Shown here in pieces: positions 1,011 to 29,394 of a DNA stretch of 64,000 nt. The stretch comes from Escherichia coli (lineage in GTDB: Bacteria; Pseudomonadota; Gammaproteobacteria; Enterobacterales; Enterobacteriaceae): assembly GCF_051903065.1 (NCBI RefSeq), contig NZ_CP178438.1, one strand, 5' to 3'. Position numbers and translations under genes: made by a program. The notes beneath the pieces are model-generated. The model worked only from the letters and a program-made list of their open reading frames with translations, was not told the origin of the DNA and did no database searches. The first letter of the stretch is position 1; each line of letters starts with the position of its first letter.

Positions 1011-4259
<3,249 letters not shown>

Positions 4260-5199: not shown

Positions 5200-5214
5200 A
5201 CAACAGAGGTTGCT

Positions 5215-6036
5215 ATGCTGTCGCGTCGGGGTCATCGGTTAAGTCGTTTTCGTAAAAATAAACGCCGCCTGCGCGAGCGTTTGCGTCAGCGTATTTTTTT
5301 CAGAGATAAAGTGGTGCCGGAAGCAATGGAAAAACCAAGAGTACTCGTACTGACAGGGGCAGGAATTTCTGCGGAATCAGGTATTCGTACCTTTCGCGCC
5401 GCAGATGGCCTGTGGGAAGAACATCGGGTTGAAGATGTGGCAACGCCGGAAGGTTTCGATCGCGATCCTGAACTGGTGCAAGCGTTTTATAACGCCCGTC
5501 GTCGACAGCTGCAGCAGCCAGAAATTCAGCCTAACGCCGCGCATCTTGCGCTGGCTAAACTGCAAGATGCTCTCGGCGATCGCTTTTTGCTGGTGACGCA
5601 GAATATAGACAACCTGCATGAACGCGCAGGTAATACCAATGTCATTCATATGCATGGGGAACTGCTGAAAGTTCGTTGTTCACAAAGTGGTCAGGTTCTC
5701 GACTGGACCGGAGACGTTACTCCAGAAGATAAATGCCATTGCTGCCAGTTTCCGGCACCCTTGCGCCCGCACGTAGTGTGGTTTGGCGAAATGCCACTCG
5801 GCATGGATGAAATTTATATGGCGTTGTCGATGGCCGATATTTTCATTGCCATTGGTACTTCGGGGCATGTTTATCCGGCGGCTGGGTTTGTTCACGAAGC
5901 GAAACTGCATGGCGCGCACACCGTGGAGCTGAATCTTGAACCAAGTCAGGTCGGTAATGAATTTGCCGAGAAATATTACGGCCCGGCAAGCCAGGTGGTG
6001 CCAGAATTTGTTGAAAAGTTGCTGAAGGGATTATAA
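5215..6036 (+). CDS. cobB: NAD-dependent protein deacylase (sirtuin), long isoform with Arg-rich N-terminal extension
   Basis: Sir2 motifs [14 protein letters not shown] and zinc Cys pairs; the in-frame internal Met (MEKPRVLVL) matches the known short isoform. Confidence 0.92.
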
Positions 6037-6048
6037 AGCAGGAAGCAT

Positions 6049-6079
6049 TGCCTGATGCGCTACGCTTATCAGGTCTACA
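6049..6079. repeat. REP-like palindromic element
   Basis: gcctgatgcgctacgcttatcaggtctac resembles the REP consensus; lies in the cobB-potD intergenic region. Confidence 0.55.
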
Positions 6080-6154
6080 AGCGGACCACAATACCGACGA
6101 AAGAGCGGGATAAAACTTTACTGTCCTGACTCATTAGTCACATCCTTGCTAAAT

Positions 6155-6188
6155 AAAAAACGGGCGGTAATACCACCGCCCGTTTGCT
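6155..6188. terminator. Bidirectional rho-independent terminator between convergent cobB and potD
   Basis: Stem aacgggcggt / accgcccgtt flanked by an A-run and a T-run. Confidence 0.7.
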
Positions 6189-6191
6189 GAA

Positions 6192-7238
6192 TTAACGTCC
6201 TGCTTTCAGCTTCTGATAATACTCTTCATAAATGCTGCTGGCTGCGCCAACGTCATTTTGCCATTCACCATTTTTAATGGTTTCAGCATCCGGGTAGAGC
6301 GTTTTATCGTTCGCCACTTCCGGGCTTAACAGCTTACGCGCCGCAAGGTTTGGCGTTGGATAACCGATAGTTTCGGCAACCTGTTTTGCCACATCCGGGC
6401 GCAGCAGGAAGTTGATCAATTTCAGCGCGCCTTCTTTGTTTTTGGCATTTGCCGGGATCGCCAGGCTGTCCATCCAGAAAATGCCGCCTTCTTTCGGCCA
6501 CACCACGTCAATAGGCGTACCCGCCTGGCGTGCAACGAAAGCAGAACCGTTCCAGATCATGCCGAGGTTAACTTCGCCTTCCATGTACGGGTTAGCCGGG
6601 TTATCGGAGTTAAACGCTGCGACGTTTGGCATCAGTTTTTTCAGCTCGTTATATGCAGCTTCAATCTCTTTCGGATCGGTGGTGTTACCGGAGTAGCCCA
6701 GCTTACGTAGCGCCATCTGGAACACTTCACGGGCATCGTCGGTCAGCAGCAGGCTGCCTTTGTACTCAGGCTTCCACAGATCGGCCCAGCTGGTAACGGA
6801 TTTCGGATCTACCGCATCACCGTTAACGCCAATCGCCGTCGCCCCCCAGATATACGGAATGGAGTAGTCGTTATTCGGGTCAAACGGCTTGTTGAGCATG
6901 TCTGGATCGAGGTTGCTGAAATTGCTTAACTTCGACTTGTCGATCTTCTGGATCATCCCTTCTTTACGCATTTTATCGACGTAATAGGTTGAAGGAACCA
7001 CCAGGTCGTAGGCACCGTCTTTGTACGTTTTCAGCTTGGCGTACATGGTTTCGTTCGACTCGTAAGTCGAATAGATAACCTTAATACCGGTTTCTTTGGT
7101 GAACTGTTCAAGCAGTCCTGGCGGCACGTACTCGGTCCAGTTGTAGAAATACAGCGTGTTGTTGTCATCGGCGTGAGCGGCGCTCATGCCCAGTGCCAGA
7201 GCACCCGCCGCGAGCAGGTGGCGTGACCATTTTTTCAT
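6192..7238 (-). CDS. potD: Spermidine/putrescine ABC transporter periplasmic binding protein
   Basis: 348-aa ORF with signal peptide MKKWSRHLLAAGALALGMSAAHA; potABCD order. Confidence 0.93.
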   Translation of the reverse strand: MKKWSRHLLAAGALALGMSAAHADDNNTLYFYNWTEYVPPGLLEQFTKETGIKVIYSTYESNETMYAKLKTYKDGAYDLVVPSTYYVDKMRKEGMIQKIDKSKLSNFSNLDPDMLNKPFDPNNDYSIPYIWGATAIGVNGDAVDPKSVTSWADLWKPEYKGSLLLTDDAREVFQMALRKLGYSGNTTDPKEIEAAYNELKKLMPNVAAFNSDNPANPYMEGEVNLGMIWNGSAFVARQAGTPIDVVWPKEGGIFWMDSLAIPANAKNKEGALKLINFLLRPDVAKQVAETIGYPTPNLAARKLLSPEVANDKTLYPDAETIKNGEWQNDVGAASSIYEEYYQKLKAGR

Positions 7239-8029
7239 TTAACGTCCCCTGTGTTACCTTTCGTTTTATCACGAGCAATAAGCTGGCTGGCAATAACCAT
7301 CACCAGCGACAGCACCAGTAATATGGTTGCCAGCGCGTTAACTTCCGGCGATACGCCGACTTTGACCATCGAATAAATTTTTAACGGCAGAATTTCATAA
7401 CTTGGTCCGGTGACGAACGAAGAAACTACCACATCGTCCATCGACAGGGTAAAGCTTAACACCCAGCCCGCCGCCACCGCTGGCATTGCCAGTGGCAGAA
7501 TGATTTTTCGCAGAATGGTAAATTCGCTGGCACCGAGATCTTTCGCCGCTTCCAGCATTCGCACGTCAAAACCTTTCAGGCGCGAATACACCGTCACCAC
7601 CACAAATGGCAGGCAGAAGGTGATATGCGAGAACAGCAGCGACCAGAAGCCAAGCTGAATACCCAGCAGCATAAACAGCACCAGCAGCGAAATCGCCATC
7701 ACGATATCTGGTGACATCATCACCACAAACAGCATTCCGCTAACGAACGGCTTACCACGAAAGCGATAACGGTACAGCGCAACTGCCGTCAGTGAACCGA
7801 TAAGCGTAGCAAACGTCGCCGAAAACACCGCCATTGTCAGTGAATGCTGCGCTGCCTGTAACAGGCTGTCGTTGTTCATCAGCAAGCTATACCATTTAGT
7901 GGTAAAACCCTGCCAGTTGATGCCAAAGCGCGAGCTGTTAAAGGAGTTCACAATCAAAATAATGATTGGGATATACAGGTACGCGTAGATAGCGGTCATA
8001 AAACCGCCGCGAAGCAGTCGACCGATCAT
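7235..8029 (-). CDS. potC: Spermidine/putrescine ABC transporter permease
   Basis: 264-aa polytopic membrane ORF; 4-nt overlaps with both neighbours. Confidence 0.92.
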   Translation of the reverse strand: MIGRLLRGGFMTAIYAYLYIPIIILIVNSFNSSRFGINWQGFTTKWYSLLMNNDSLLQAAQHSLTMAVFSATFATLIGSLTAVALYRYRFRGKPFVSGMLFVVMMSPDIVMAISLLVLFMLLGIQLGFWSLLFSHITFCLPFVVVTVYSRLKGFDVRMLEAAKDLGASEFTILRKIILPLAMPAVAAGWVLSFTLSMDDVVVSSFVTGPSYEILPLKIYSMVKVGVSPEVNALATILLVLSLVMVIASQLIARDKTKGNTGDVK

Positions 8030-8883
8030 TCGAGTTCCACCTTCTTATTCAGCAGACGAGAAGCGCGCCAGTAAACCAGCAACATCAGGCCCATTACGAT
8101 AGTCAGCGTAATGCTGGTGGCTGCACCAAACGGCCAGTCACGAATATTAAGGAACTGGACCTTGATGACGTTACCGATCAGCAGGTTTTTCGCACCGCCC
8201 ATCAGGTCGGACACATAGAACAGGCCCATCGCTGGCAGCATCACCAGCAGACATCCGGCAATAATCCCCGGCATCGTCAGTGGAATAATGATACGGATAA
8301 AAGTCTGTAACTTGCTGGCACCGAGATCGCGCGCCGCCTCAAGCAACGGCTTATCCAGTTTTTCGATACTGGAGTACAGCGGCATCACCATAAACGGCAG
8401 CAGAATGTAAACCAGACCGATAATCACCGCACTGGGCGTGAACATGATACGGATTGGTGTGTCGATAACGCCCAGCCAGAGCAAAAACTCGTTGAGGTAG
8501 CCTTTGGTGCTGAGGAAAATTTTCAGCCCGTAGATGCGAATCAGTGAGTTGGTCCAGAAGGGAACAATCAGCAGAAACAGCAGCAGCGGACGCACCTTGT
8601 GTGGCAGCTTCGCCAGAAACCAGGCAAACGGATAGCCCAGCACCAGGCAGGCGAGGGTGGCGATCAGCGCCATATTCAGCGAGTGCAATAGCACTTCAAA
8701 ATAGAGCGGATCGAGCAGACGTGTGTAGTTATCCAGCGTAAAGACCATTTTGACGAAACTGGCGTCGTCGCGGGTCAAAAAGCTGGTGCCAATGATCATC
8801 AGGTTGGGCAGAAAGACAAACAACACAAGCCAACCGACAATAGTGACAATCACTACATTCTGGAACTTACTTGTGTTCTTCAT
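8026..8883 (-). CDS. potB: Spermidine/putrescine ABC transporter permease
   Basis: Membrane permease ORF between potA and potC; exact start is uncertain (track start used, it overlaps the potA 3' end). Confidence 0.88.
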
Positions 8884-10003
8884 CAGCCAGTACGACCTCC
8901 CAGCTTTCTACCCAATTAATGGCCATTTTTTGGTCGAGAGAGTGGTCAAAGTCAGGATCGTCTTCATTGAAGAATTCGCTGACCATCACCATCTTGCCAT
9001 TTTCCAGTTCAACAACCGACTCCAGCGTCATGCCTTTGTAGTTACGCTCGCGAACGTAACCAATCAGCCCTTCAGCGTGGTTGTCGTCGTTAATCTCTTC
9101 AACACGTAAGTCTTCCGGGCGCAGCAGAACATGCAGTTTTTGCCCCGGTTCAACGGCGAAGTTAACGTAGATATTACATTCGCGGCCTTCAACGTTGGCG
9201 CGTACGCGCTGCTCGTCGAGACGTTCGATGACAGTGGCGTTAAACATATTGATTTCGCCAATGAACCCGGCAACAAACAGGTTTTTCGGCTCTTCGTAGA
9301 TTTCACGCGGCGTGCCGTCTTGCTCAATGCGACCATCGCGCATCACCACAATCCTGTCCGACATGGTGAGTGCTTCTTCCTGGTCGTGAGTCACGAAGAC
9401 GAATGTAATGCCAAGCTTACGCTGTAACGCTTTCAGCTCGTTCTGCATTTGCTTGCGCAGTTTGTAATCCAGCGCTGAGAGCGACTCATCCAGCAACAAC
9501 AGACGAGGCTTGTTAACCACCGCGCGAGCAATGGCGACGCGTTGCTGTTGACCACCAGAGAGCTGATGCGGTTTACGTTGAGCGAAGGTTTCCAGCTGCA
9601 CCATCCGCAGGGCTTCCATCACGCGGGGCGTAATTTCAGCAGCGGGGGTTTTTTGCATGCGCAACCCAAAGGCCACATTTTCGAACACGGTCATGTGGGG
9701 GAAAAGTGCGTAGCTTTGGAAAACAGTGTTCACATAGCGGTTTTCCGCCGGAACGTGGGTGATGTCCTCGTTATCCAACATGATGCGTCCGGAATCAACA
9801 GTTTCCAGACCTGCAATCAGGCGAAGAACGGTTGTTTTACCGCAGCCAGAAGGGCCAAGCAGCGTGAGGAACTCGCCATTGTTGATAGTCAGATCCAGCT
9901 GGGGAATGACCTCTTTACCATCAAAGCATTTGCGAATTCCCGCCAATTGCACCAGCGGTGAAAGCGAACTCGGTTGTTTATTCAATTTTTTACTCTGTCC
10001 CAT
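8867..10003 (-). CDS. potA: Spermidine/putrescine ABC transporter ATPase
   Basis: 378 aa; Walker [10 protein letters not shown] and signature LSGGQQQR; starts [10 protein letters not shown]. Confidence 0.93.
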
Positions 10004-10252
10004 GTAAACGCAACGGATGGCTTACCGATGCGGGGTTTGTGGTTAACCACCTTGGTGACTCTTAATGAGGGCGGTAATTCTACGGCAAACCGCTTGAATC
10101 GCCAATCTTTGTTGTGAATTACTGGCTTAGCTTTATATTCATTAAGGTAATGCTGATAAATATTCCCGCTTGCAGGGGTAAAAGTGACCTGACGCAATAT
10201 TTGTCTTTTCTTGCTTCTTAATAATGTTGTCACAAAAAGTGAGGGTGACTAC

Positions 10253-11479
10253 ATGGATAAACTACTTGAGCGATTTTTGAACTACGTGTCTCTGGATACC
10301 CAATCAAAAGCAGGGGTGAGACAGGTTCCCAGCACGGAAGGCCAATGGAAGTTGTTGCATCTGCTGAAAGAGCAGCTCGAAGAGATGGGGCTTATCAATG
10401 TGACCTTAAGTGAGAAGGGCACTTTGATGGCGACGTTACCGGCTAACGTCCCTGGCGATATCCCGGCGATTGGCTTTATTTCTCATGTGGATACCTCACC
10501 GGATTGCAGCGGCAAAAATGTGAATCCGCAAATTGTTGAAAACTATCGCGGTGGCGATATTGCGCTGGGTATCGGCGATGAAGTTTTATCACCGGTTATG
10601 TTCCCGGTGCTGCATCAGCTACTGGGTCAGACGCTGATTACTACCGATGGTAAAACCTTGTTAGGTGCCGATGACAAAGCCGGTATTGCAGAAATCATGA
10701 CCGCGCTGGCGGTATTGCAACAGAAAAACATTCCGCATGGTGATATTCGCGTCGCCTTTACCCCGGATGAAGAAGTGGGCAAAGGGGCGAAACATTTTGA
10801 TGTTGACGCCTTCGATGCCCGCTGGGCTTACACTGTTGATGGTGGTGGCGTAGGCGAACTGGAGTTTGAAAACTTCAACGCCGCGTCGGTCAATATCAAA
10901 ATTGTCGGTAACAATGTTCACCCGGGTACGGCGAAAGGAGTGATGGTAAATGCGCTGTCGCTGGCGGCACGTATTCATGCGGAAGTTCCGGCGGATGAAA
11001 GCCCGGAAATGACAGAAGGCTATGAAGGTTTCTATCACCTTGCGAGCATGAAAGGCACCGTTGAACGGGCCGATATGCACTACATCATCCGTGATTTCGA
11101 CCGTAAACAGTTTGAAGCGCGTAAACGTAAAATGATGGAGATCGCCAAAAAAGTGGGCAAAGGGTTACATCCTGATTGCTACATTGAATTGGTGATTGAA
11201 GACAGTTACTACAATATGCGCGAGAAAGTGGTTGAGCATCCGCATATTCTCGATATCGCCCAGCAGGCGATGCGTGACTGCGATATTGAACCGGAACTGA
11301 AACCGATCCGCGGTGGTACCGACGGCGCGCAGTTGTCGTTTATGGGATTACCGTGCCCGAACCTGTTCACTGGCGGTTACAACTATCATGGTAAGCATGA
11401 GTTTGTGACTCTGGAAGGTATGGAAAAAGCGGTGCAGGTGATCGTCCGTATTGCCGAGTTAACGGCGCAACGGAAGTAA
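10253..11479 (+). CDS. pepT: Peptidase T (tripeptide aminopeptidase, M20 family)
   Basis: Start at [18 protein letters not shown] (ATG 10253) rather than the track start. Confidence 0.92.
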
Positions 11480-11486
11480 GCGAAAA

Positions 11487-11515
11487 GGGATGCGGCATGT
11501 GATGCCGCATCCGGC
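11487..11515. terminator. Hairpin terminator between convergent pepT and roxA
   Basis: Palindrome gatgcggcat / atgccgcatc immediately after the pepT stop. Confidence 0.6.
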
Positions 11516-11527
11516 TTAAATCCAAAC

Positions 11528-12649
11528 TTACCCTTCGAAGAACCAATACCCGCTATTGACCAGCGCCGCGAGCATCGCGAGGAATGACGGATCTTCCAGC
11601 GCATCGCCAAAATTCTCCGCAGTCAGCGCAATGTTGCTGGCGAGTGCATCCAGTGCCGGACGGTGCGGGGAATCGATCTTCTCACCATTGGCATACACGT
11701 CGTCGCCAATGCGCAATACGCGCAGACCACCCAGGCGCACCAGCACATCACCTTGTTTCAGCGCATCGTAGATTTCATCCGGCTGATAAGGCGGCTCTGG
11801 CGGCGCGATATCCAGTTCATGACGTGACTGGGATATAAACTCCCCAAACCATTGCTTAAAGTGTTCCGGCTGGTTGATCAATTCGAGCATCATCTCACGC
11901 AGTTTATCCATCTCTTGCGGCAGAACATCCGCAGGATGAGCGCGAGGTGGAACATCAGGATCGCTGTAGTAGTTGCCGCCCAGTTCACGTTGCAGCACAT
12001 AATCGGCAAATCCACTAATCAGTTCCCGCGTATTTGGCGCGCGAAAACCCACGGAATAGTTCATCGCATTTTCCAGCGCGTAGCCTTCATGCGGGAATCC
12101 TGGCGGAATATAAAGAATATCGCCAGGCTCCAGCTCTTCATCGATGATGGCTTCGAACGGATCGACCTGTAACAGATCCGGGTGCGGACAGTGCTGTTTC
12201 ATTTGCAGCTTTTCGCCCACTCGCCAGCGACGACGACCGGTACCCTGAATGATAAACACGTCGTACTGATCGAGATGCGGGCCGACGCCGCCGCCAGGTA
12301 CAGAAAAAGAGATCATCAGATCATCAATACGCCAGTCCGGTAGTTCACGGAACGGTCGCATCAGCGCGGCGGTCGGCTCATGCCAGTGGTTCACTGCTTG
12401 CACTAACAATGACCAGTTAGTTTCACCGAGATGATCGTAGCTTTCGAACGGACCGTGGCTGACCTGCCATTTTCCATCCTGGTGACTGACCAGTCGACTG
12501 TCGACTTCGCTTTCCATCGCCAGACCCGCCAACTCGTCTGGAGAGATCGGGTCAATAAAATTATTAAAGCCGCGTTTTAACACCACCGGGCGTTTCTGCC
12601 AGTGACGTTCAAGAAAATCGGGCCAGTTAAGAGTGAGTTGGTATTCCAT
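11528..12649 (-). CDS. roxA: Ribosomal protein L16 arginine hydroxylase (JmjC/cupin)
   Basis: Start at MEYQLTLNWPDF, three codons inside the track ORF; position between pepT and phoQ. Confidence 0.9.
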   Translation of the reverse strand: MEYQLTLNWPDFLERHWQKRPVVLKRGFNNFIDPISPDELAGLAMESEVDSRLVSHQDGKWQVSHGPFESYDHLGETNWSLLVQAVNHWHEPTAALMRPFRELPDWRIDDLMISFSVPGGGVGPHLDQYDVFIIQGTGRRRWRVGEKLQMKQHCPHPDLLQVDPFEAIIDEELEPGDILYIPPGFPHEGYALENAMNYSVGFRAPNTRELISGFADYVLQRELGGNYYSDPDVPPRAHPADVLPQEMDKLREMMLELINQPEHFKQWFGEFISQSRHELDIAPPEPPYQPDEIYDALKQGDVLVRLGGLRVLRIGDDVYANGEKIDSPHRPALDALASNIALTAENFGDALEDPSFLAMLAALVNSGYWFFEG

Positions 12650-12724
12650 GTTAAGCATCCACAGGCTGGTATCTGCAACCGATTATAACGGATGCTTAAC
12701 GTAATGCGTGAAGTATGGACATAT

Positions 12725-14185
12725 TTATTCATCTTTCGGCGCAGAATGCTGGCGACCAAAAATCACCTCCATCCGCGCACCGCCCAGCATGCTCTCTCCG
12801 GCGACGATTTTACCCTCATATTGCTCGGTGATTTCGCGGGCTACCGCCAGCCCCACACCTTGCCCAGGGCGTAAAGTATCAACCCGTTGACCACGGTCGA
12901 AAATGACCTCTCGCTTGCTTAATGGAATACCGGGTCCATCATCCTCGACCACAATATAGAGATGCTCGTCGGTTTGCCTTGCAGAAATTTCGACAAACTC
13001 GAGGCAATATTTACAGGCATTATCCAGCACATTGCCCATCACCTCGACAAAATCGTTCTGCTCACCGACAAAGCTGATCTCTGGCGAAATATCGAGAGAG
13101 ATATTGACCCCTTTGCGTTGATACACTTTGTTCAGCGCCGAGGTGAGATTGTCCAGCAGTGGGGCGACCGGATGCAGCTCGCGGCTGAGCAATGTCCCGC
13201 CGCGCATACTGGCACGATGCAGGTAGTAGCCAATTTGCTGTGAAATGCGGCTGATTTGCTCCAGCATTACCGGTTCAGCATCACTGACGCTCATCTTTTC
13301 ACTACGCAGAGAACGCAGCGTACTTTGCAGCACCGCCAGTGGCGTTTTCAGACTATGGGTCAGGTCGGTGAGCGTTGTACGGTATTTGTCGTAACGTTCG
13401 CGTTCGCTTTTTAACAATCGGTTCAGGTTTCGTACCAGACTGGTCAGTTCTCGCGTTGTGGCTGGATTGAGCAATTCGCGGTTATGTTCTTCCAGTTCGC
13501 GGACTTCTTTTGCCAGGGCTTCGATGGGGCGTAAACTCCACCAGGCGGCGACCCACAGCAGCGGGATCACTAACAGCAGATTGGCTGAGAGCACATAGAT
13601 AAACCAGCTCCAGACCATATAGGAACTTTTTAGCTCCACCGGAATGGTATCCACCACCACAATGGTTAACTTTGGCATCCGCGATGTTGCCGGGTAGACA
13701 TTTACCGCCACCGAGTGGGTCATCTCCGCGTCGTCATCATCTTCCCGCACTTCCTGCAACTGTTGCTGTATCGAATGATCTCCACTCAGCAAGAGGCTGG
13801 TATCGTTAACATCCGCTTCAATTTCATGAAAACCATTCGATTTCAGCCAGTCAGGCTGGATCATCTTCATCAGCCAGGGCACGTCACGTTGCGCCCATAA
13901 AAGCTGCCCGTTCTCATCATAAATTAGCGTCATGGTGGGGCTTTGCTTGTCGATATTTTCGGGTAACTCGACATGCAACTTATTGTTTTCCCACTTCGCA
14001 AGGGTATAGAACAGATTGCTCTCGCCACGTAACAGCCGAAACGTAGTTTTATCGAAACTGACGCTATAACCGATCAGCGCGACCATTCCGTAGGCAAGCG
14101 AAAGCACCAGTACTACCGCTGCCGTTGCCAACAGAAAACGTACCCGCAGCGAGAGCGGGAAAAAAAGACGCAGTAATTTTTTCAT
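12725..14185 (-). CDS. phoQ: Sensor histidine kinase PhoQ
   Basis: 486 aa with two transmembrane segments, a periplasmic sensor region and an HK core; overlaps the phoP stop. Confidence 0.95.
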
Positions 14186-14856
14186 CAGCGCAATTCGAAC
14201 AGATAGCCCTGGCCGCGAACGGTGGTAATCACTTCTTGGGGATATTGTGCCTGAATTTTTTTGCGCAGACGTCCCATCAGTACATCAATGGTATGGCTTT
14301 CCCGCAGCTCCGCATCCGGATAGAGTTGGAGCATTAACGAATCTTTGCTCACCACTTTGCCATTATTGCGTATCAACGTTTCCATAATGGTGTATTCGAA
14401 CGCGGTCAGTTTGATCACTTCGTCATTAATAGATAATTCACGGCGAGAGAGATCAACCTGAAACGGGGGGAGCGAAATGACCTGTGAAGCCAGGCCGCTA
14501 TTACGCCGCATTAATGCCTGCATTCGCGCCATCACCTCTTCAATATGAAACGGTTTAGTCACGTAATCATCAGCACCGGCACTTAATACTTCGACTTTGT
14601 CCTGCCAGCTTTCACGGGCGGTTAATACCAGAATCGGCAGTGAAACATCATTGCTACGCCAGCGGCGAATCAGTGACAGACCGTCCTCGTCTGGCAATCC
14701 GAGATCGACAATCGCAATATCCGGTAAATGTTCATTGAGATAATAATCGGCTTCTTTGGCATCTTCTGCATCATCGACCTGATGACCAGCATCCTGAATC
14801 TGAACTTTAAGGTGGTGACGTAACAACGCATTGTCTTCAACAACCAGTACGCGCAT
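14185..14856 (-). CDS. phoP: Response regulator PhoP (OmpR family)
   Basis: 223 aa, [16 protein letters not shown]...; receiver plus winged-helix domains. Confidence 0.95.
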
Positions 14857-14906
14857 TTTTATTTCTCCCTGTCTTAATTATTAAAATAGTGTAACGCGAT
14901 TATGTG

Positions 14907-14923
14907 GTTATGGGGGTAAACAT
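14907..14923 (-). promoter_or_regulatory. PhoP box (direct repeat GGTTTA-N5-TGTTTA) in the autoregulated phoPQ promoter
   Basis: The minus strand reads GGTTTATTTAATGTTTA about 50 nt upstream of the phoP start. Confidence 0.7.
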
Positions 14924-15024
14924 TAAATAAACCAGCGGGGGAGGGGAGGTAAAGTGAAAAAATAAAAAGCGGATAATCTTAATAAGCAGGCCGGACAGCA
15001 TCGCCATCCGGCACTGATACGAGT

Positions 15025-16398
<1,374 letters not shown>

Positions 16399-17040
16399 TC
16401 ACAACTCCGGGGTTAAATGAGCAAGAATTTGTTTTGCCTGAGTGGTCAGGCGATTACGAGAAAACATCAGTTGCAGACGTCCGCCGCCGACCTGGTGCCA
16501 GAGCACGGCGGCGCGAATGCCTGCCAGCAGGGTTGCGCGAACTTTCGCCTGCACTTGTGGGCTTTGCAGTACAGCAGGGGAGCCGGTGACCTGAATGCGC
16601 GGGCCAAGCGGGCTAATCACATCAACATAGATAGCAGCCATCGCGCTCATCAGCGTTTCGGACTGTAAATCGAAGTGTTCGAGCTGGCGTTGCAGGCCGT
16701 TGATCCGGTTGCCCAGAGTGTCGAGCGCACCTTTCGCTGAGGAGAGTTTGCGCTCAAGCACCATCAGGCTGAGTGTGTAGCGGGTTAATTCGGCGTTTAA
16801 GCCCTGGCGACTGCTGGCATTGAGCACGCCGAGCAGGGTTTCCAGCCCGACGCGCAGGTTGGCTTCGCTACCGCCAAAAACCGCCAGCGTCGAGCTGGGG
16901 TTCATATCAATAATACTGTTGAGTGAGACGTGTAGCGCATCGGCATCACAATGCCCCTGGTGAGCGAGTTGTTGCACCAGGCGTGCCGACTGACAAATAC
17001 CGGCCAGGGCGAGGGTGATGTCATAGTAATTCTTTGCCAC
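16399..17040 (-). CDS. hflD: High-frequency lysogenization protein HflD
   Basis: Protein matches HflD from [14 protein letters not shown], read from a GTG start two codons inside the track ORF. Confidence 0.88.
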
Positions 17041-17075
17041 GTTCACTGCTTCCTTGTTTTAAGTAAAGATAATAA

Positions 17076-18697
<1,622 letters not shown>

Positions 18698-18707
18698 TTT
18701 TGCATCC

Positions 18708-19361
18708 TTAATCTGTCACTTCTCGCCATTCGCCATAAGCAAGATTATCCAAAGAGTAATCACCCATCGCATAACGAATCAGTCGCAGCGTGGGGAAACC
18801 AACATGGGCGGTCATGCGGCGCACCTGGCGATTACGTCCTTCATATAAGGTGATCTTCAGCCAGCTGGTGGGAATACTTTTGCGTTCACGAATTGGTGGA
18901 TTCCGCGGCCATAACCACGCAGGTTCGTCAACCAGCTCCGCGCCGGCGGGCAGGGTAGGGCCATCATTTAAGGTTACGCCATTGCGCAAGGCTTCAAGTG
19001 CATCTTGTGTGGGAATGCCTTCCACCTGCACATAATAGATTTTTCCAGTGCGTTTGCCTGGCTGGGTTAAACGCGCCTGTAGTGCACCATTATTGGTCAG
19101 CACCAATAACCCTTCGCTATCTCTGTCAAGACGACCTGCTGCATAAACGCCCTGAACCGGGATGAATTCTTTTAATGTTTTGCGTCCGGCTTCATCGGTG
19201 AACTGCGGAAGAACATCGTAGGGTTTATTGAACAGGATCACACGCGTGGGCTGGTTTTCAGGTTTACGCCTGGTAGAACGTTGCGAGCTGAATCGCTTAA
19301 CCTGGTGATTTCTAAAAGAAGTTTTTTGCATGGTATTTTCAGAGATTATGAATTGCCGCAT
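18708..19361 (-). CDS. rluE: 23S rRNA pseudouridine synthase RluE
   Basis: 217 aa, RsuA-family motif [11 protein letters not shown]. Confidence 0.92.
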
Positions 19362-19532
19362 TATAGCCTAATAACGCGCATCTTTCATGACGGCAAACAA
19401 TAGGGTAGTATTGACAAGCCAATTACAAATCATTAACAAAAAATTGCTCTAAAGCATCCGTATCGCAGGACGCAAACGCATATGCAACGTGGTGGCAGAC
19501 GAGCAAACCAGTAGCGCTCGAAGGAGAGGTGA

Positions 19533-20783
19533 ATGGAAAGTAAAGTAGTTGTTCCGGCACAAGGCAAGAAGATCACCCTGCAAAACGGCAAACTCAACGT
19601 TCCTGAAAATCCGATTATCCCTTACATTGAAGGTGATGGAATCGGTGTAGATGTAACCCCAGCCATGCTGAAAGTGGTCGACGCTGCAGTCGAGAAAGCC
19701 TATAAAGGCGAGCGTAAAATCTCCTGGATGGAAATTTACACCGGTGAAAAATCCACACAGGTTTATGGTCAGGATGTCTGGCTGCCTGCTGAAACCCTTG
19801 ATCTGATTCGTGAATATCGCGTTGCCATTAAAGGCCCGCTGACCACTCCGGTTGGTGGCGGTATTCGCTCTCTGAACGTTGCCCTGCGCCAGGAACTGGA
19901 TCTCTACATCTGCCTGCGTCCGGTACGTTACTATCAGGGCACTCCAAGCCCGGTTAAACACCCTGAACTGACCGATATGGTTATCTTCCGTGAAAACTCG
20001 GAAGACATTTATGCGGGTATCGAATGGAAAGCTGACTCTGCCGACGCCGAGAAAGTGATTAAATTCCTGCGTGAAGAGATGGGCGTGAAGAAAATTCGCT
20101 TCCCGGAACATTGCGGTATCGGTATTAAGCCGTGTTCGGAAGAAGGCACCAAACGTCTCGTTCGTGCAGCGATCGAATACGCAATTGCCAACGATCGTGA
20201 CTCTGTGACCCTGGTGCACAAAGGCAACATCATGAAGTTCACCGAAGGCGCGTTTAAAGACTGGGGCTACCAGCTGGCGCGTGAAGAATTTGGCGGTGAA
20301 CTGATCGACGGCGGCCCGTGGCTGAAAGTTAAAAACCCGAACACCGGCAAAGAGATCGTCATTAAAGACGTGATTGCTGATGCATTCCTGCAACAGATCC
20401 TGCTGCGTCCGGCTGAATATGATGTTATCGCCTGTATGAACCTGAACGGTGACTACATTTCTGACGCCCTGGCAGCGCAGGTTGGCGGTATCGGTATCGC
20501 CCCTGGCGCAAACATCGGTGACGAATGCGCCCTGTTTGAAGCTACCCACGGTACTGCGCCGAAATATGCCGGTCAGGACAAAGTTAACCCAGGCTCTATT
20601 ATTCTCTCCGCAGAGATGATGTTACGCCACATGGGTTGGACCGAAGCCGCAGACCTGATTGTTAAAGGTATGGAAGGCGCAATCAACGCCAAGACCGTAA
20701 CCTATGACTTCGAACGTCTGATGGAAGGCGCTAAACTGCTGAAATGTTCAGAGTTTGGTGATGCGATCATCAAGAATATGTAA
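19533..20783 (+). CDS. icd: Isocitrate dehydrogenase (NADP)
   Basis: 416 aa, [38 protein letters not shown]...; uninterrupted 3' end. Confidence 0.97.
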
Positions 20784-20805
20784 TCACTACATGTGTTAAA
20801 TATTT

Positions 20806-20838
20806 AAACGGGCGTATAACACGCCCGTTGTTTTATTT
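20806..20838 (+). terminator. icd rho-independent terminator
   Basis: Stem acgggcgt / acgcccgt followed by a T-run, about 25 nt after the icd stop. Confidence 0.75.
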
Positions 20839-20885
20839 ATGTGGATATTATTAATAGCATATCGAGCATATTTATATAAAACCTA

Positions 20886-21209
20886 TTACTTGAGCCCATA
20901 TGGGCATATTTTTATAATGCAACTCTTATGCAAACATTTATTTGTTATTTCGCTTTCTCCTGGAGGACACTCTTGACTGCTTTTAAGTAAACTCCATAAA
21001 TTCTTGTTGAATGGTGCAATGTTATAAATAGTAATAGGATATTCTTTATCCTTAAGGATAATACCAGGCTTAACCGGTGTAAATATACTTCCAGGAGGAA
21101 GAAATATAGTAGATTGATACCAGATAATCATTTTCATATCACCCCATATGGCTGAAAAAGATATGCCGCATGTAGGTTGAATTACCGTGTCAATTACTAC
21201 CCACTTCAT
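20886..21209 (-). CDS. iraM: Anti-adaptor protein IraM-like (RssB inhibitor)
   Basis: 107-aa [26 protein letters not shown]...CPYGLK in an AT-rich setting next to icd; identity recalled from memory, not searched. Confidence 0.6.
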
Positions 21210-21665
21210 TTGTTATGTCTTATCCCACGGTATTTAATATAGTTCATTTGGATGTTCATTTCTTTATTTTGCATATGAGTATATTACCCCTTCAAAAAAT
21301 AAATTAATTAAAACGATTGCTTATATAAAACAAAATTTAAAGCAAGGAATCTCAATGGATGTTAAACAAAATGAGATTTAGTGAAAACAATAAATTATTC
21401 ACTTCGTTTTAGATTTGTTTAGCTATAATGTTATACATTCAAATGACTGACCATCCTGTAATTAAAACATAGCCTTTATGCTACTTTGTGCCAATTTGCT
21501 AAACATTATGGTTGCCTTTTTATATAACGATAATAATGAATATAAGCATGACATGAGAATAAGGTTTCAATTTTTGAGTTATATAGGAAAGGTTTAACCT
21601 GTTCCTGGCTAAAATACATATAACTGGATGATGACTAAACCAAAACACATGTGCGTTAAGTATTG

Positions 21666-21696
21666 AAACGGGCGTATGGCACGCCCGTTGTTTTTA
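21666..21696 (+). repeat. Second copy of the icd-terminator hairpin (orphan, possible att-site remnant)
   Basis: acatgtgcgttaagtattgaaacgggcgtatggcacgcccgttgttttt closely matches 20791-20838; no plus-strand gene upstream of it. Confidence 0.6.
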
Positions 21697-21904
21697 TAAA
21701 TATATTAACCGTTATAAAATAACGTATAGAAAGTCAAGTGATCACATTTCAAATGTCAATTTGATAGTATTGGCCTGGTGATTATTTATGGGTAGCAATA
21801 AAAGGACAGTATTTATCATCCATAGGGATAGTCTCTGTACTTTTATTCCCATTATGCTAATGCCTTACTGAATTATGAAGCATTTCTTAAGCATCCAACT
21901 TTAG

Positions 21905-22309
21905 CTAGATTAATGGTTTATTATTTTCTACATCTTCAATATATAAAAGCGTATTATCAATGGCGTAGTAACTGCGTTTGTTATGATTAACATCAGTAAC
22001 CCAACGGAAAACGCCCGCGTCTGCCAGTATTGAACAGTATTCCCGAAATGTAGATTTTCCGCAAATATGAAGCAATGCGGCCTCTTTTATTTTAGCAGGG
22101 TTCTTGGTCGTACTAACTTTTAACAGGTTCCTGGTTCCTCTTAATAACAAAACCGTGTCATCGTGAGTAATAATTCTGATGTTATCCGTAGCCAGATAAT
22201 AAATGTAATGTGCAATACGGTGATGTTTTAATTCTGAATAAAACCAGGAGAAGTTTTGCTCTTTTCTCACTTGCTCAAACATCTTTTGAAAAACAACGAC
22301 CTGATCCAT
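21905..22309 (-). CDS. ycgX: Uncharacterised 134-aa protein (YcgX-like)
   Basis: 134-aa ORF between iraM and bluR, matching K-12 order; assignment rests on position and length. Confidence 0.55.
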   Translation of the reverse strand: MDQVVVFQKMFEQVRKEQNFSWFYSELKHHRIAHYIYYLATDNIRIITHDDTVLLLRGTRNLLKVSTTKNPAKIKEAALLHICGKSTFREYCSILADAGVFRWVTDVNHNKRSYYAIDNTLLYIEDVENNKPLI

Positions 22310-28406: not shown

Positions 28407-28805
28407 TCTTTCAGTTTCTCACTGTCAGTATGCGGCTGAATGGGGTGCTGACAGTGAACGCCTGGATCATTGAAGGAAAGGAATTATTGCGCAAATAGTT
28501 GTCAACCCTGGTGTTATCACAGTTGTTTTTATATATCATTGAAATAATTTCTATGGCAACTATCAATGATAGTGATGTCGAAGAGTTATTTGTTAAACAA
28601 AATCGTCACCTCAAAGTGATCAATGTCATGAAAATAAGGTGAAAAATGATAATGCCGACTTATTTATCATTTATATATTGTAGCTGTTTATCTATTTAAA
28701 TTTCTTGTGCTTTTGTTTTTGTCTTTACCCTCCGTTTTGGTAATCTGAACTCATAGGTTATTTGACCAGGAATGTTTGTTAATCCAATGAATGGATGGTT
28801 AATCT

Positions 28806-29394
28806 ATGAAACTGAAAAAACTCCCCGGGTTTAGTTTAGGACTTATTGCTCTGGCGGTGGGTAATGCATATGCAACACAATTGTTGGATGATTATAGTAT
28901 AATTTCCTATATAACCGATGAAGAATCGCCGATTCAAATCAAAGATAATACTTTGAAAAGTAATGAAGAATATCTAACCACTGAAGACGAAAGTCATGCT
29001 GTGAAAGTGGATGACGGTGTAACTAGATATATAAATAATGCCAGTGTGATGACTAGTGGTGATGGATCTTATGGTATTTCTGTTGATAGTCAAAACAAAG
29101 TATTATATATAAGCGATAGCGATATTAAGACCTCTGGAAGCGTATCTAACAAAGAAAATAACCAAGATGTTAATGGAGGGATAACAGCCAGCGCAGTAGT
29201 CAGTGAATTTGGTGGCACCATCGTTATGAATGGTGATAATTTAGTCGAGACGGGGGGGGCATATTCAGCGGGACTTTTAAGTCAGGTTAATGATTCTGGA
29301 AATGTGGAAAATAACACTCGTCTTGAAACCACAGATAAAACGATCATTGTTACCTCTGGGGAAAATGCAGTAGGTGTTCTTGCATGTTCAAGTC
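28806..29394 (+). pseudogene. ycgH: Autotransporter gene, 5' part (signal peptide and passenger start), interrupted by IS903
   Basis: Sec signal MKLKKLPGFSLGLIALAVGNAYA; the reading frame runs into the IS left end and stops inside the inverted repeat. Confidence 0.85.

Follow-up and report, generated by a model that had tools for sequence, protein, structure and literature searches.

Direct adjacency of cobB and potD in an Escherichia coli genome: the probable scar of an old and widely shared deletion

The genes cobB and potD are separated by a spacer of only 155 bp in the stretch of Escherichia coli DNA analysed here (64,000 nucleotides, hereafter the window). This spacer is very probably the scar of one old deletion of 1,287 bp, by which the distal member of a pair of REP elements, all of ycfZ and all of ymfA beyond its first ~15 codons would have been lost. 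The initial annotation of the window, made from the sequence alone, had noted that the two genes converge across about 155 bp and had placed ycfZ and ymfA between them in K-12. It had then left open whether a strain-specific deletion had occurred in the window or an insertion in K-12. The evidence given below supports a deletion, but one that is shared by about a tenth of complete E. coli genomes and that occurred at a site which had itself been filled much earlier.

Gene order at the locus and elements left in the spacer

Both genes were identified with NCBIfam models (Table 1), with cobB on the plus strand and potD on the minus strand, and the stop-to-stop spacer as read from the window occupies positions 6037-6191. 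The adjacency first reported was thereby confirmed, as was the gene order given for K-12, which is indeed cobB, ycfZ, ymfA, potD, with ycfZ and ymfA on the potD strand and overlapping each other by 4 nt. The same arrangement of ycfZ and ymfA is found in a B1-type strain and in Nissle 1917.

Positions 5200-7300 of the window are 100% identical to E. coli ECNB21-M121 (NZ_CP083585), the annotation of which also has cobB and potD as direct neighbours in this identical stretch. Over the 14.7 kb from 7300 to 22000, just 96 genomes reach at least 99% identity, relatives in this region including O157:H16 Santai (99.4%) and O55:H7 (99.0%), and by these comparisons the window strain is taken to be an E. 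coli that is neither K-12 nor O157:H7. Against NZ_CP083585 there are ~9 scattered SNPs in the first 29.4 kb of the window, after which register is lost from ~29395, which suggests an indel or a structural difference at that point. The source of the window is thus closely related to ECNB21-M121 without being that strain itself; over 7300-22000, slightly higher scores than its own are reached by 23CRST027 and 23CRST031. In a near-identical genome (equivalent to window positions ~19500-21200) iraM lies directly after icd, and the e14 prophage, which sits at icd in K-12, is therefore absent here. A phage integrase gene directly follows potC in an O157-type genome and in E1433, at the place where the window has potB and potA (8026-10003), and a prophage appears to be inserted into the pot operon of both.

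When the window was compared with undeleted genomes, the spacer resolved into two blocks, the first (6037-6086) corresponding to the cobB-proximal REP region and the second (6089-6191) to the first ~15 codons of ymfA together with its leader and the potD terminator. As a piece of ymfA is kept in this "empty" allele, the state found in the window is therefore derived by deletion.

Table 1. Features of the cobB-potD locus in the window, and coordinates of ymfA, of lesions and of other noted features in fetched loci (the latter numbered within each locus).
Feature	Position	Strand	Basis
cobB, Sir2-family NAD+-dependent deacylase, 273-aa form	5215-6036	+	NCBIfam NF001755 (E 1.8e-180, 597.9 bits)
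cobB stop codon TAA	6034-6036	+	273-aa form
REP, single; putative survivor of the two-REP BIME of undeleted genomes	6050-6078	+	pattern match, GCCTGATGCGCTACGCTTATCAGGTCTAC
ymfA' remnant ORF, 19 codons (MSQDSKVLSRSFVGIVVRL followed by a stop)	6075-6134	-	direct reading and homology to B1-type, K-12 and ERR7450729-contig ymfA
Probable deletion junction, GGAC-CA-CAAT	6083-6092	.	alignment to long forms, spacer comparisons, parental-type allele
ymfA 5' leader and ribosome-binding region, intact (reverse complement ...AGCAAGGATGTGACTA-ATG)	6135-6157	-	long-form comparison
Predicted intrinsic terminator of potD (potABCD operon): 12-bp stem, 4-nt loop, U-rich tail	6158-6185	-	terminator scan
potD, spermidine/putrescine ABC transporter substrate-binding protein	6192-7238	-	NCBIfam NF007048 (E 8e-239, 791.3 bits)
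ymfA, B1-type strain (L002)	2761-3222		fetched locus
ymfA, K-12 (L007)	2583-3044		fetched locus
ymfA, Nissle 1917 (L008)	2373-2834		fetched locus
ymfA, ERR7450729 contig (L091)	3001-3462		fetched locus
Loss of ycfZ alone, leaving MKKFI joined to the last few codons, ERR7450729 contig (L091)	3462-3560		fetched locus
IS1 replacing the 3' part of cobB, all of ycfZ and the 3' end of ymfA, E1433 (L009)	2068-3374		fetched locus
cobB stop region, K-12 (L007)	1655-1680		fetched locus
Phage integrase gene after potC, O157-type genome (L003)	3997-4101		fetched locus
Phage integrase gene after potC, E1433 (L009)	5436-6298		fetched locus
icd followed directly by iraM, near-identical genome (L092)	28769-30445		fetched locus
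IS200C between ymfA and potD, FDAARGOS_1286 (L010)	2399-2857		fetched locus

The REP elements of E. coli are imperfect palindromes of ~30-35 nt with the consensus halves GCC(G/T)GATGCG and CTTATC(A/C)GGCCTAC. The element in the spacer, which had been described as REP-like, reads GCCTGATGCG-CTA-CGCTTATCAGGTCTAC with one mismatch to the pattern, and folds into a hairpin of -11.5 kcal/mol. The 43-nt stretch around it occurs at no fewer than 40 places per E. coli genome, in 4,685 records. Being a consensus palindrome, extragenic and dispersed in many copies, it can be classed as a REP on sequence grounds. In undeleted genomes a second, inverted REP follows 33 nt beyond the first (GGGCCGGATAAGGCG...CATCCGGC), and the loss of this second copy leaves the window with one REP in place of the inverted pair that makes up a BIME. 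A regular-expression search of the 64-kb window found no REP other than this one.

The reading frame left from ymfA (ymfA') starts with the ATG at 6134-6132, and its ymfA-derived part runs from codon 1 to about codon 15 (6134-6089), after which it reads through the junction and the REP to a TAG (6077-6075). Following the ATG, the minus strand reads AGT CAG GAC AGT AAA GTT TTA TCC CGC TCT TTC GTC GGT ATT G.., corresponding to MSQDSKVLSRSFVGI. An intact ymfA has ~153 codons and encodes a DUF3592 domain at residues 40-112 of the protein; the ORF in the window has 19 codons. The leader preceding the remnant equals the long-form potD-ymfA intergenic sequence except at two positions.

The hairpin next to potD had been put forward as a bidirectional terminator, and this could be upheld for one direction only. 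The terminator scan called it solely on the minus strand, where it begins 7 nt past the potD stop and has the tail UUUUUUAUUU, while on the plus strand the stem is followed by UUUGCUGAAUU, a poor U tract, and no terminator was called. The two strands fold with -20.3 kcal/mol (minus strand, z -4.7) and -19.8 kcal/mol (plus strand, z -5.2), and the hairpin is conserved in all of the aligned Escherichia loci. On sequence grounds it is the canonical intrinsic terminator of potABCD, and any bidirectional action on behalf of cobB would at best be weak. After the deletion it is the sole strong hairpin downstream of cobB. An Rfam scan of positions 5600-6600 at E ≤ 1 returned no family, so that the spacer contains neither a known sRNA nor a known riboswitch.

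The stop of cobB was itself found to be polymorphic (window 6028-6050). The window, O157, O121, B1 and Nissle sequences read GGA TTA TAA and encode 273 aa; K-12 and HS have one T fewer (GGA TTA AAA GCG GGA AGC ATT GCC TGA), giving six extra codons, a protein of 279 aa and a TGA stop that lies within the REP.

Frequency of the deleted state, its junction and its spread

Loci with ycfZ-ymfA between cobB and potD are referred to here as long forms and the deleted ones as short forms. Measured from anchor to anchor, long forms have a spacer of 1,445 or 1,444 bp and short forms one of 158 or 157 bp, a difference of 1,287 bp. The ycfZ-ymfA segment was matched in 4,850 of 5,426 complete E. coli genomes (89%), and adjacency in most strains, which the initial annotation had named as the outcome that would speak against its proposal, was thus not what was found within E. 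coli. A 350-bp probe centred on the window junction was covered contiguously in 574 of the 5,426 genomes (10.6%), and a 60-nt probe spanning the junction matched 558 genomes with megablast and 560 with blastn, with one match per genome. The deleted state is therefore present in 560-574 of these genomes (~10%, in a collection that over-samples O157:H7, ~385 of the junction matches being O157/O145-type sequence), among them O157:H7, O145:H28, O121:H19 and HS. It is also present in Escherichia sp. E1V33, which is treated as a separate species by the GTDB-based collection and as "unclassified Escherichia" by NCBI. The proposal of a deletion thus stands but its description as strain-specific does not. 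Between 14 and 16 genomes that lack ycfZ-ymfA or have a near-contiguous cobB-potD miss the junction probe (576 and 574 versus 560), and these may carry secondary changes or independent deletions.

Variable presence of these genes has been noted before. The presence or absence of ycfZ (b1121) among E. coli strains is known from its use as a virulence-array marker (PMC2749873), b1121/ycfZ is listed as an array marker in a further study (PMC3091784), and YmfA and YcfZ are among the membrane proteins reported as variably present (PMC10304320). The absence of ycfZ-ymfA is a real but ordinary polymorphism, already visible in public annotation and array studies, and is not novel.

At the junction, homology to the left flank extends through 6086 and homology to ymfA begins at 6089 with CAAT, a motif common to both parental flanks, while the CA at 6087-6088 is unlike either sampled parent, the sampled left flanks having G. 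The breakpoint is placeable only within 6083-6092. On the left it lies 5-10 nt past the REP, between the two inverted REPs of the BIME, in agreement with the earlier suggestion that the REP may mark the junction.

No intact ymfA identical to the remnant was found in the 4,850 long-form complete genomes, the best match being 95.9% (B1 type). A protein search yielded the ymfA allele P0004 (MSQDSNVLSRSFVGIGL...), with seven member sequences from Logan assemblies. The P0004 contig from Logan run ERR7450729 reads ...GTACCAAAC-CAAT-ACCGACGAAAGAGCGGGATAAAAC, and its sequence ...AAACCAATACCGACGAAAGAGCGGGATAAAAC is an exact 28-nt match to window positions 6089-6116, encoding SRSFVGI as does the remnant. 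The apparent "substitutions" in the remnant are therefore those of a divergent parental allele and not decay, the nucleotide sequence of this parental-type allele coming from a single Logan assembly that itself has lost ycfZ alone (Table 1). The junction of that ycfZ-only deletion occurs in 0 of the 5,426 complete genomes, so it was rejected as the cause of the 14-16 probe-negative genomes.

Every long form has the sequence ...G(G)AC-G-CAAT-TAATTG immediately beyond the proximal REP. CAAT is thus found at both parental endpoints (in the long-form left flanks and in ymfA of the ERR7450729 contig), while the junction has a single copy (6089-6092), a pattern suggestive of a short-homology deletion. 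There is a discrepancy of 1-2 nt in the join (CA versus G), and the parent is pieced together from two different sequences. No long-form left flank with the CA of the junction (GGACCACAATTAATTG) was found in the collection, where the best match was 95.4%, so that an extra change of 1-2 nt or an unsampled parent is needed.

Based on these endpoints, the deletion may have joined two CAATs lying 1.29 kb apart, one past the proximal REP and the other at codons 15-16 of ymfA. The route would be RecA-independent short-homology recombination of the slippage type, perhaps aided by hairpins of the REP/BIME. As a result both membrane proteins are lost, the 19-codon ymfA' ORF would possibly still be translatable, and transcripts of cobB would now run first into the single REP and then into the weak side of the potD terminator.

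Whether this happened once or repeatedly was judged from six short forms, namely the window, the O157:H7-type FSIS11705876, O145 RM8995, O121 RM8352, HS and Escherichia sp. E1V33. All six have the identical junction string GGAC-CACAATACCGACGAAAGAGCGGGATAAAAC (GGACCACAATACCGACGAAAGAGCGGGATAAAAC). Across the final 800 nt of cobB, the O121 short form and the B1 long form differ by 1 SNP and HS and K-12 by 4 SNPs, and E1V33 differs from all of the E. coli sequences by 33-42 SNPs; the flanking SNPs follow strain background with no clustering by deletion status. The remnant differs from B1-type ymfA at 3 of 17 positions and from the K-12 type at ~9 of 24, and is the same on every background, including that of HS. 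The combination in HS of K-12-like flanks with a remnant that is not of K-12 type therefore disfavours recurrence in situ. One junction and one type of remnant on differing flanks point to one old event, later spread by homologous recombination. We infer that the deletion arose a single time, on a chromosome with a rare ymfA allele, and that recombination then carried it to phylogroups E, B1 and A as well as to a non-coli Escherichia.

It is unlikely, in our estimate, that the same deletion instead recurred independently, with the REP/BIME as a site-specific hot spot on which gyrase or a REP-associated transposase, among others, might act. Recurrence would account for the deleted state being found on different flanking haplotypes and also for the left flank of HS, which is K-12-like right up to the junction, such that a simple transfer would call for a crossover placed to within a few nucleotides, or else for REP conversion or mutation afterwards. 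The locus is also prone to rearrangement, as seen from the IS1 deletion in E1433, IS200C in FDAARGOS_1286, IS1 inside the ycfZ-ymfA segment of S56 (NZ_CP010242) and the ycfZ-only deletion of the ERR7450729 contig. However, all of the short forms examined have in common the breakpoint, the unusual CA at 6087-6088 and a remnant that belongs to a single class of rare allele, whereas deletions arising separately on A, B1 and E backgrounds would be expected to leave remnants of the local alleles. A deletion that struck once, on a rare-allele chromosome, and then spread by homologous recombination is thus the preferred reading.

Polarity of the change and the older insertion

Outside E. coli, ycfZ-ymfA is present at this site in E. 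albertii, E. whittamii, two further Escherichia representatives and two species of Phytobacter, the proteins of the latter being 50-59% identical. A sample of 80 species-level Enterobacteriaceae loci around potD was also inspected. Forty-two of these have a potD-cobB gap of 18-215 bp with no remnant of ymfA, including Salmonella enterica subsp. arizonae and many loci of Trabulsiella, Lelliottia, Enterobacter and Citrobacter, and the start motif of ymfA occurs in the Escherichia loci only. The GC content of ycfZ-ymfA is 42-44% compared to 51-52% in the cobB and potD flanks. From its distribution and composition, ycfZ-ymfA represents an older low-GC insertion, acquired at or before the Escherichia ancestor, with the deletion in the window derived from the filled site. 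The suggestion that the K-12 genes are an insertion thus holds at this deeper level but does not explain the window, where ymfA has left a remnant.

The window could alternatively be the ancestral empty site, with K-12 and most E. coli having gained ycfZ-ymfA by insertion, and the 42 adjacent-gene loci, the low GC content of the two genes and the unrelated cargo that the site carries in other genera are all in keeping with this. It is nevertheless very improbable, as the window retains the ymfA leader, the ATG and ~15 codons, a motif with no counterpart in outgroup spacers, and a site still awaiting the insertion could not contain a fragment of the inserted gene. An artefact of the assembly or of the window, such as a repeat collapsed at the REP, can be dismissed almost entirely given that, although the REP is a dispersed repeat of at least 40 copies per genome, the identical single-copy junction occurs in ~560 independently finished genomes and the deleted segment is unique sequence and not itself a repeat.

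The cargo in the potD/cobB gaps of other genera consists of unrelated ORFs spanning 0.4 to more than 4 kb, among which an ORF for a hydrophobic protein of 168-170 aa recurs. Our analysis flags this convergent gap as an insertion hotspot across the family, and ymfA as unusually divergent.

The lost genes and comparison with known systems

A signal peptide and a TPM domain (PF04536) are present in YcfZ (262 aa), and hydrophobic C-terminal segments are visible by inspection. In YmfA (153 aa), a DUF3592 domain (PF12158) lies between two hydrophobic segments and the protein has a basic tail, also by inspection. Neither protein matched a PADLOC family at E ≤ 1 (0 families), so that they do not classify as a known anti-phage defence system, and searches against NCBIfam and PDB sequences gave no match, Pfam TPM and DUF3592 being the only domains recognised. 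No functional study turned up in the literature searched on ymfA, ycfZ and DUF3592.

Between the K-12 and B1 alleles, protein identity is 75% for YmfA and 97% for YcfZ. The dS of ymfA for this pair is 0.83 (dN/dS 0.18) against 0.14 for potD of the same two strains, a divergence within E. coli on par with that of orthologues from different genera. This divergence is mosaic along ycfZ-ymfA; recombinant alleles exist (P0002), and ycfZ of Nissle has a divergent block of its own.

Taken with the presence of the null allele across A, B1, E and a separate species, the divergent ymfA (dS ~0.8) and the mosaic alleles raise the idea that ycfZ-ymfA is a long-lived balanced polymorphism of an envelope module, which we regard as doubtful. 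If true, frequency-dependent selection by phages, colicins or grazers could be acting on this periplasm-exposed pair, and the deletion would be a maintained "absence" allele and not neutral decay. The old ymfA alleles and the cross-species null allele are at most compatible with balancing selection.

As one among many small differences in content between K-12 and other E. coli, affecting two genes of unknown function, the deletion is of low importance in itself. The junction GGACCACAATACCGAC can nevertheless serve to track recombination among E. coli phylogroups and cryptic clades, being a clean marker of single origin, and O157:H7, O145:H28, O121:H19 and HS are natural ycfZ-ymfA knockouts usable for finding the function of these y-genes.

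Several known systems resemble parts of this picture. The "K-islands" are reportedly K-12 segments absent from O157:H7, said to have been described in 2001 by Perna et al. and Hayashi et al. when EDL933 and Sakai were compared with MG1655. Like these, ycfZ-ymfA is a short K-12 segment of two y-genes that is absent in O157:H7 and relatives, and O157:H7 has exactly the junction of the window. Unlike them, the polarity is settled here by a gene remnant, the deleted state is shared well beyond O157:H7, and the window is not O157:H7. The locus likewise resembles the b1121 marker of virulence and CGH arrays, ycfZ being variably present among E. coli, but the array papers, unlike the present analysis, give no junction, mechanism or evolutionary direction.

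Deletions between direct repeats of a few bases, independent of RecA, were classically mapped in lacI. The endpoints here similarly fall at a 4-nt direct repeat, CAAT, which the nearby REP/BIME palindrome could juxtapose; they differ from the lacI cases in the short length of the repeat (only 4 nt), in a join that is off by 1-2 nt and in a parent reconstructed from two sequences. REP and BIME elements are also found at the join points of rearrangements, as in the REP-mediated duplications of Salmonella and E. coli. The left breakpoint here likewise falls between the REPs of a BIME, 5-10 nt away from a REP stem, but the right breakpoint lies in coding sequence without a REP, and the event is therefore not a case of REP-REP recombination.
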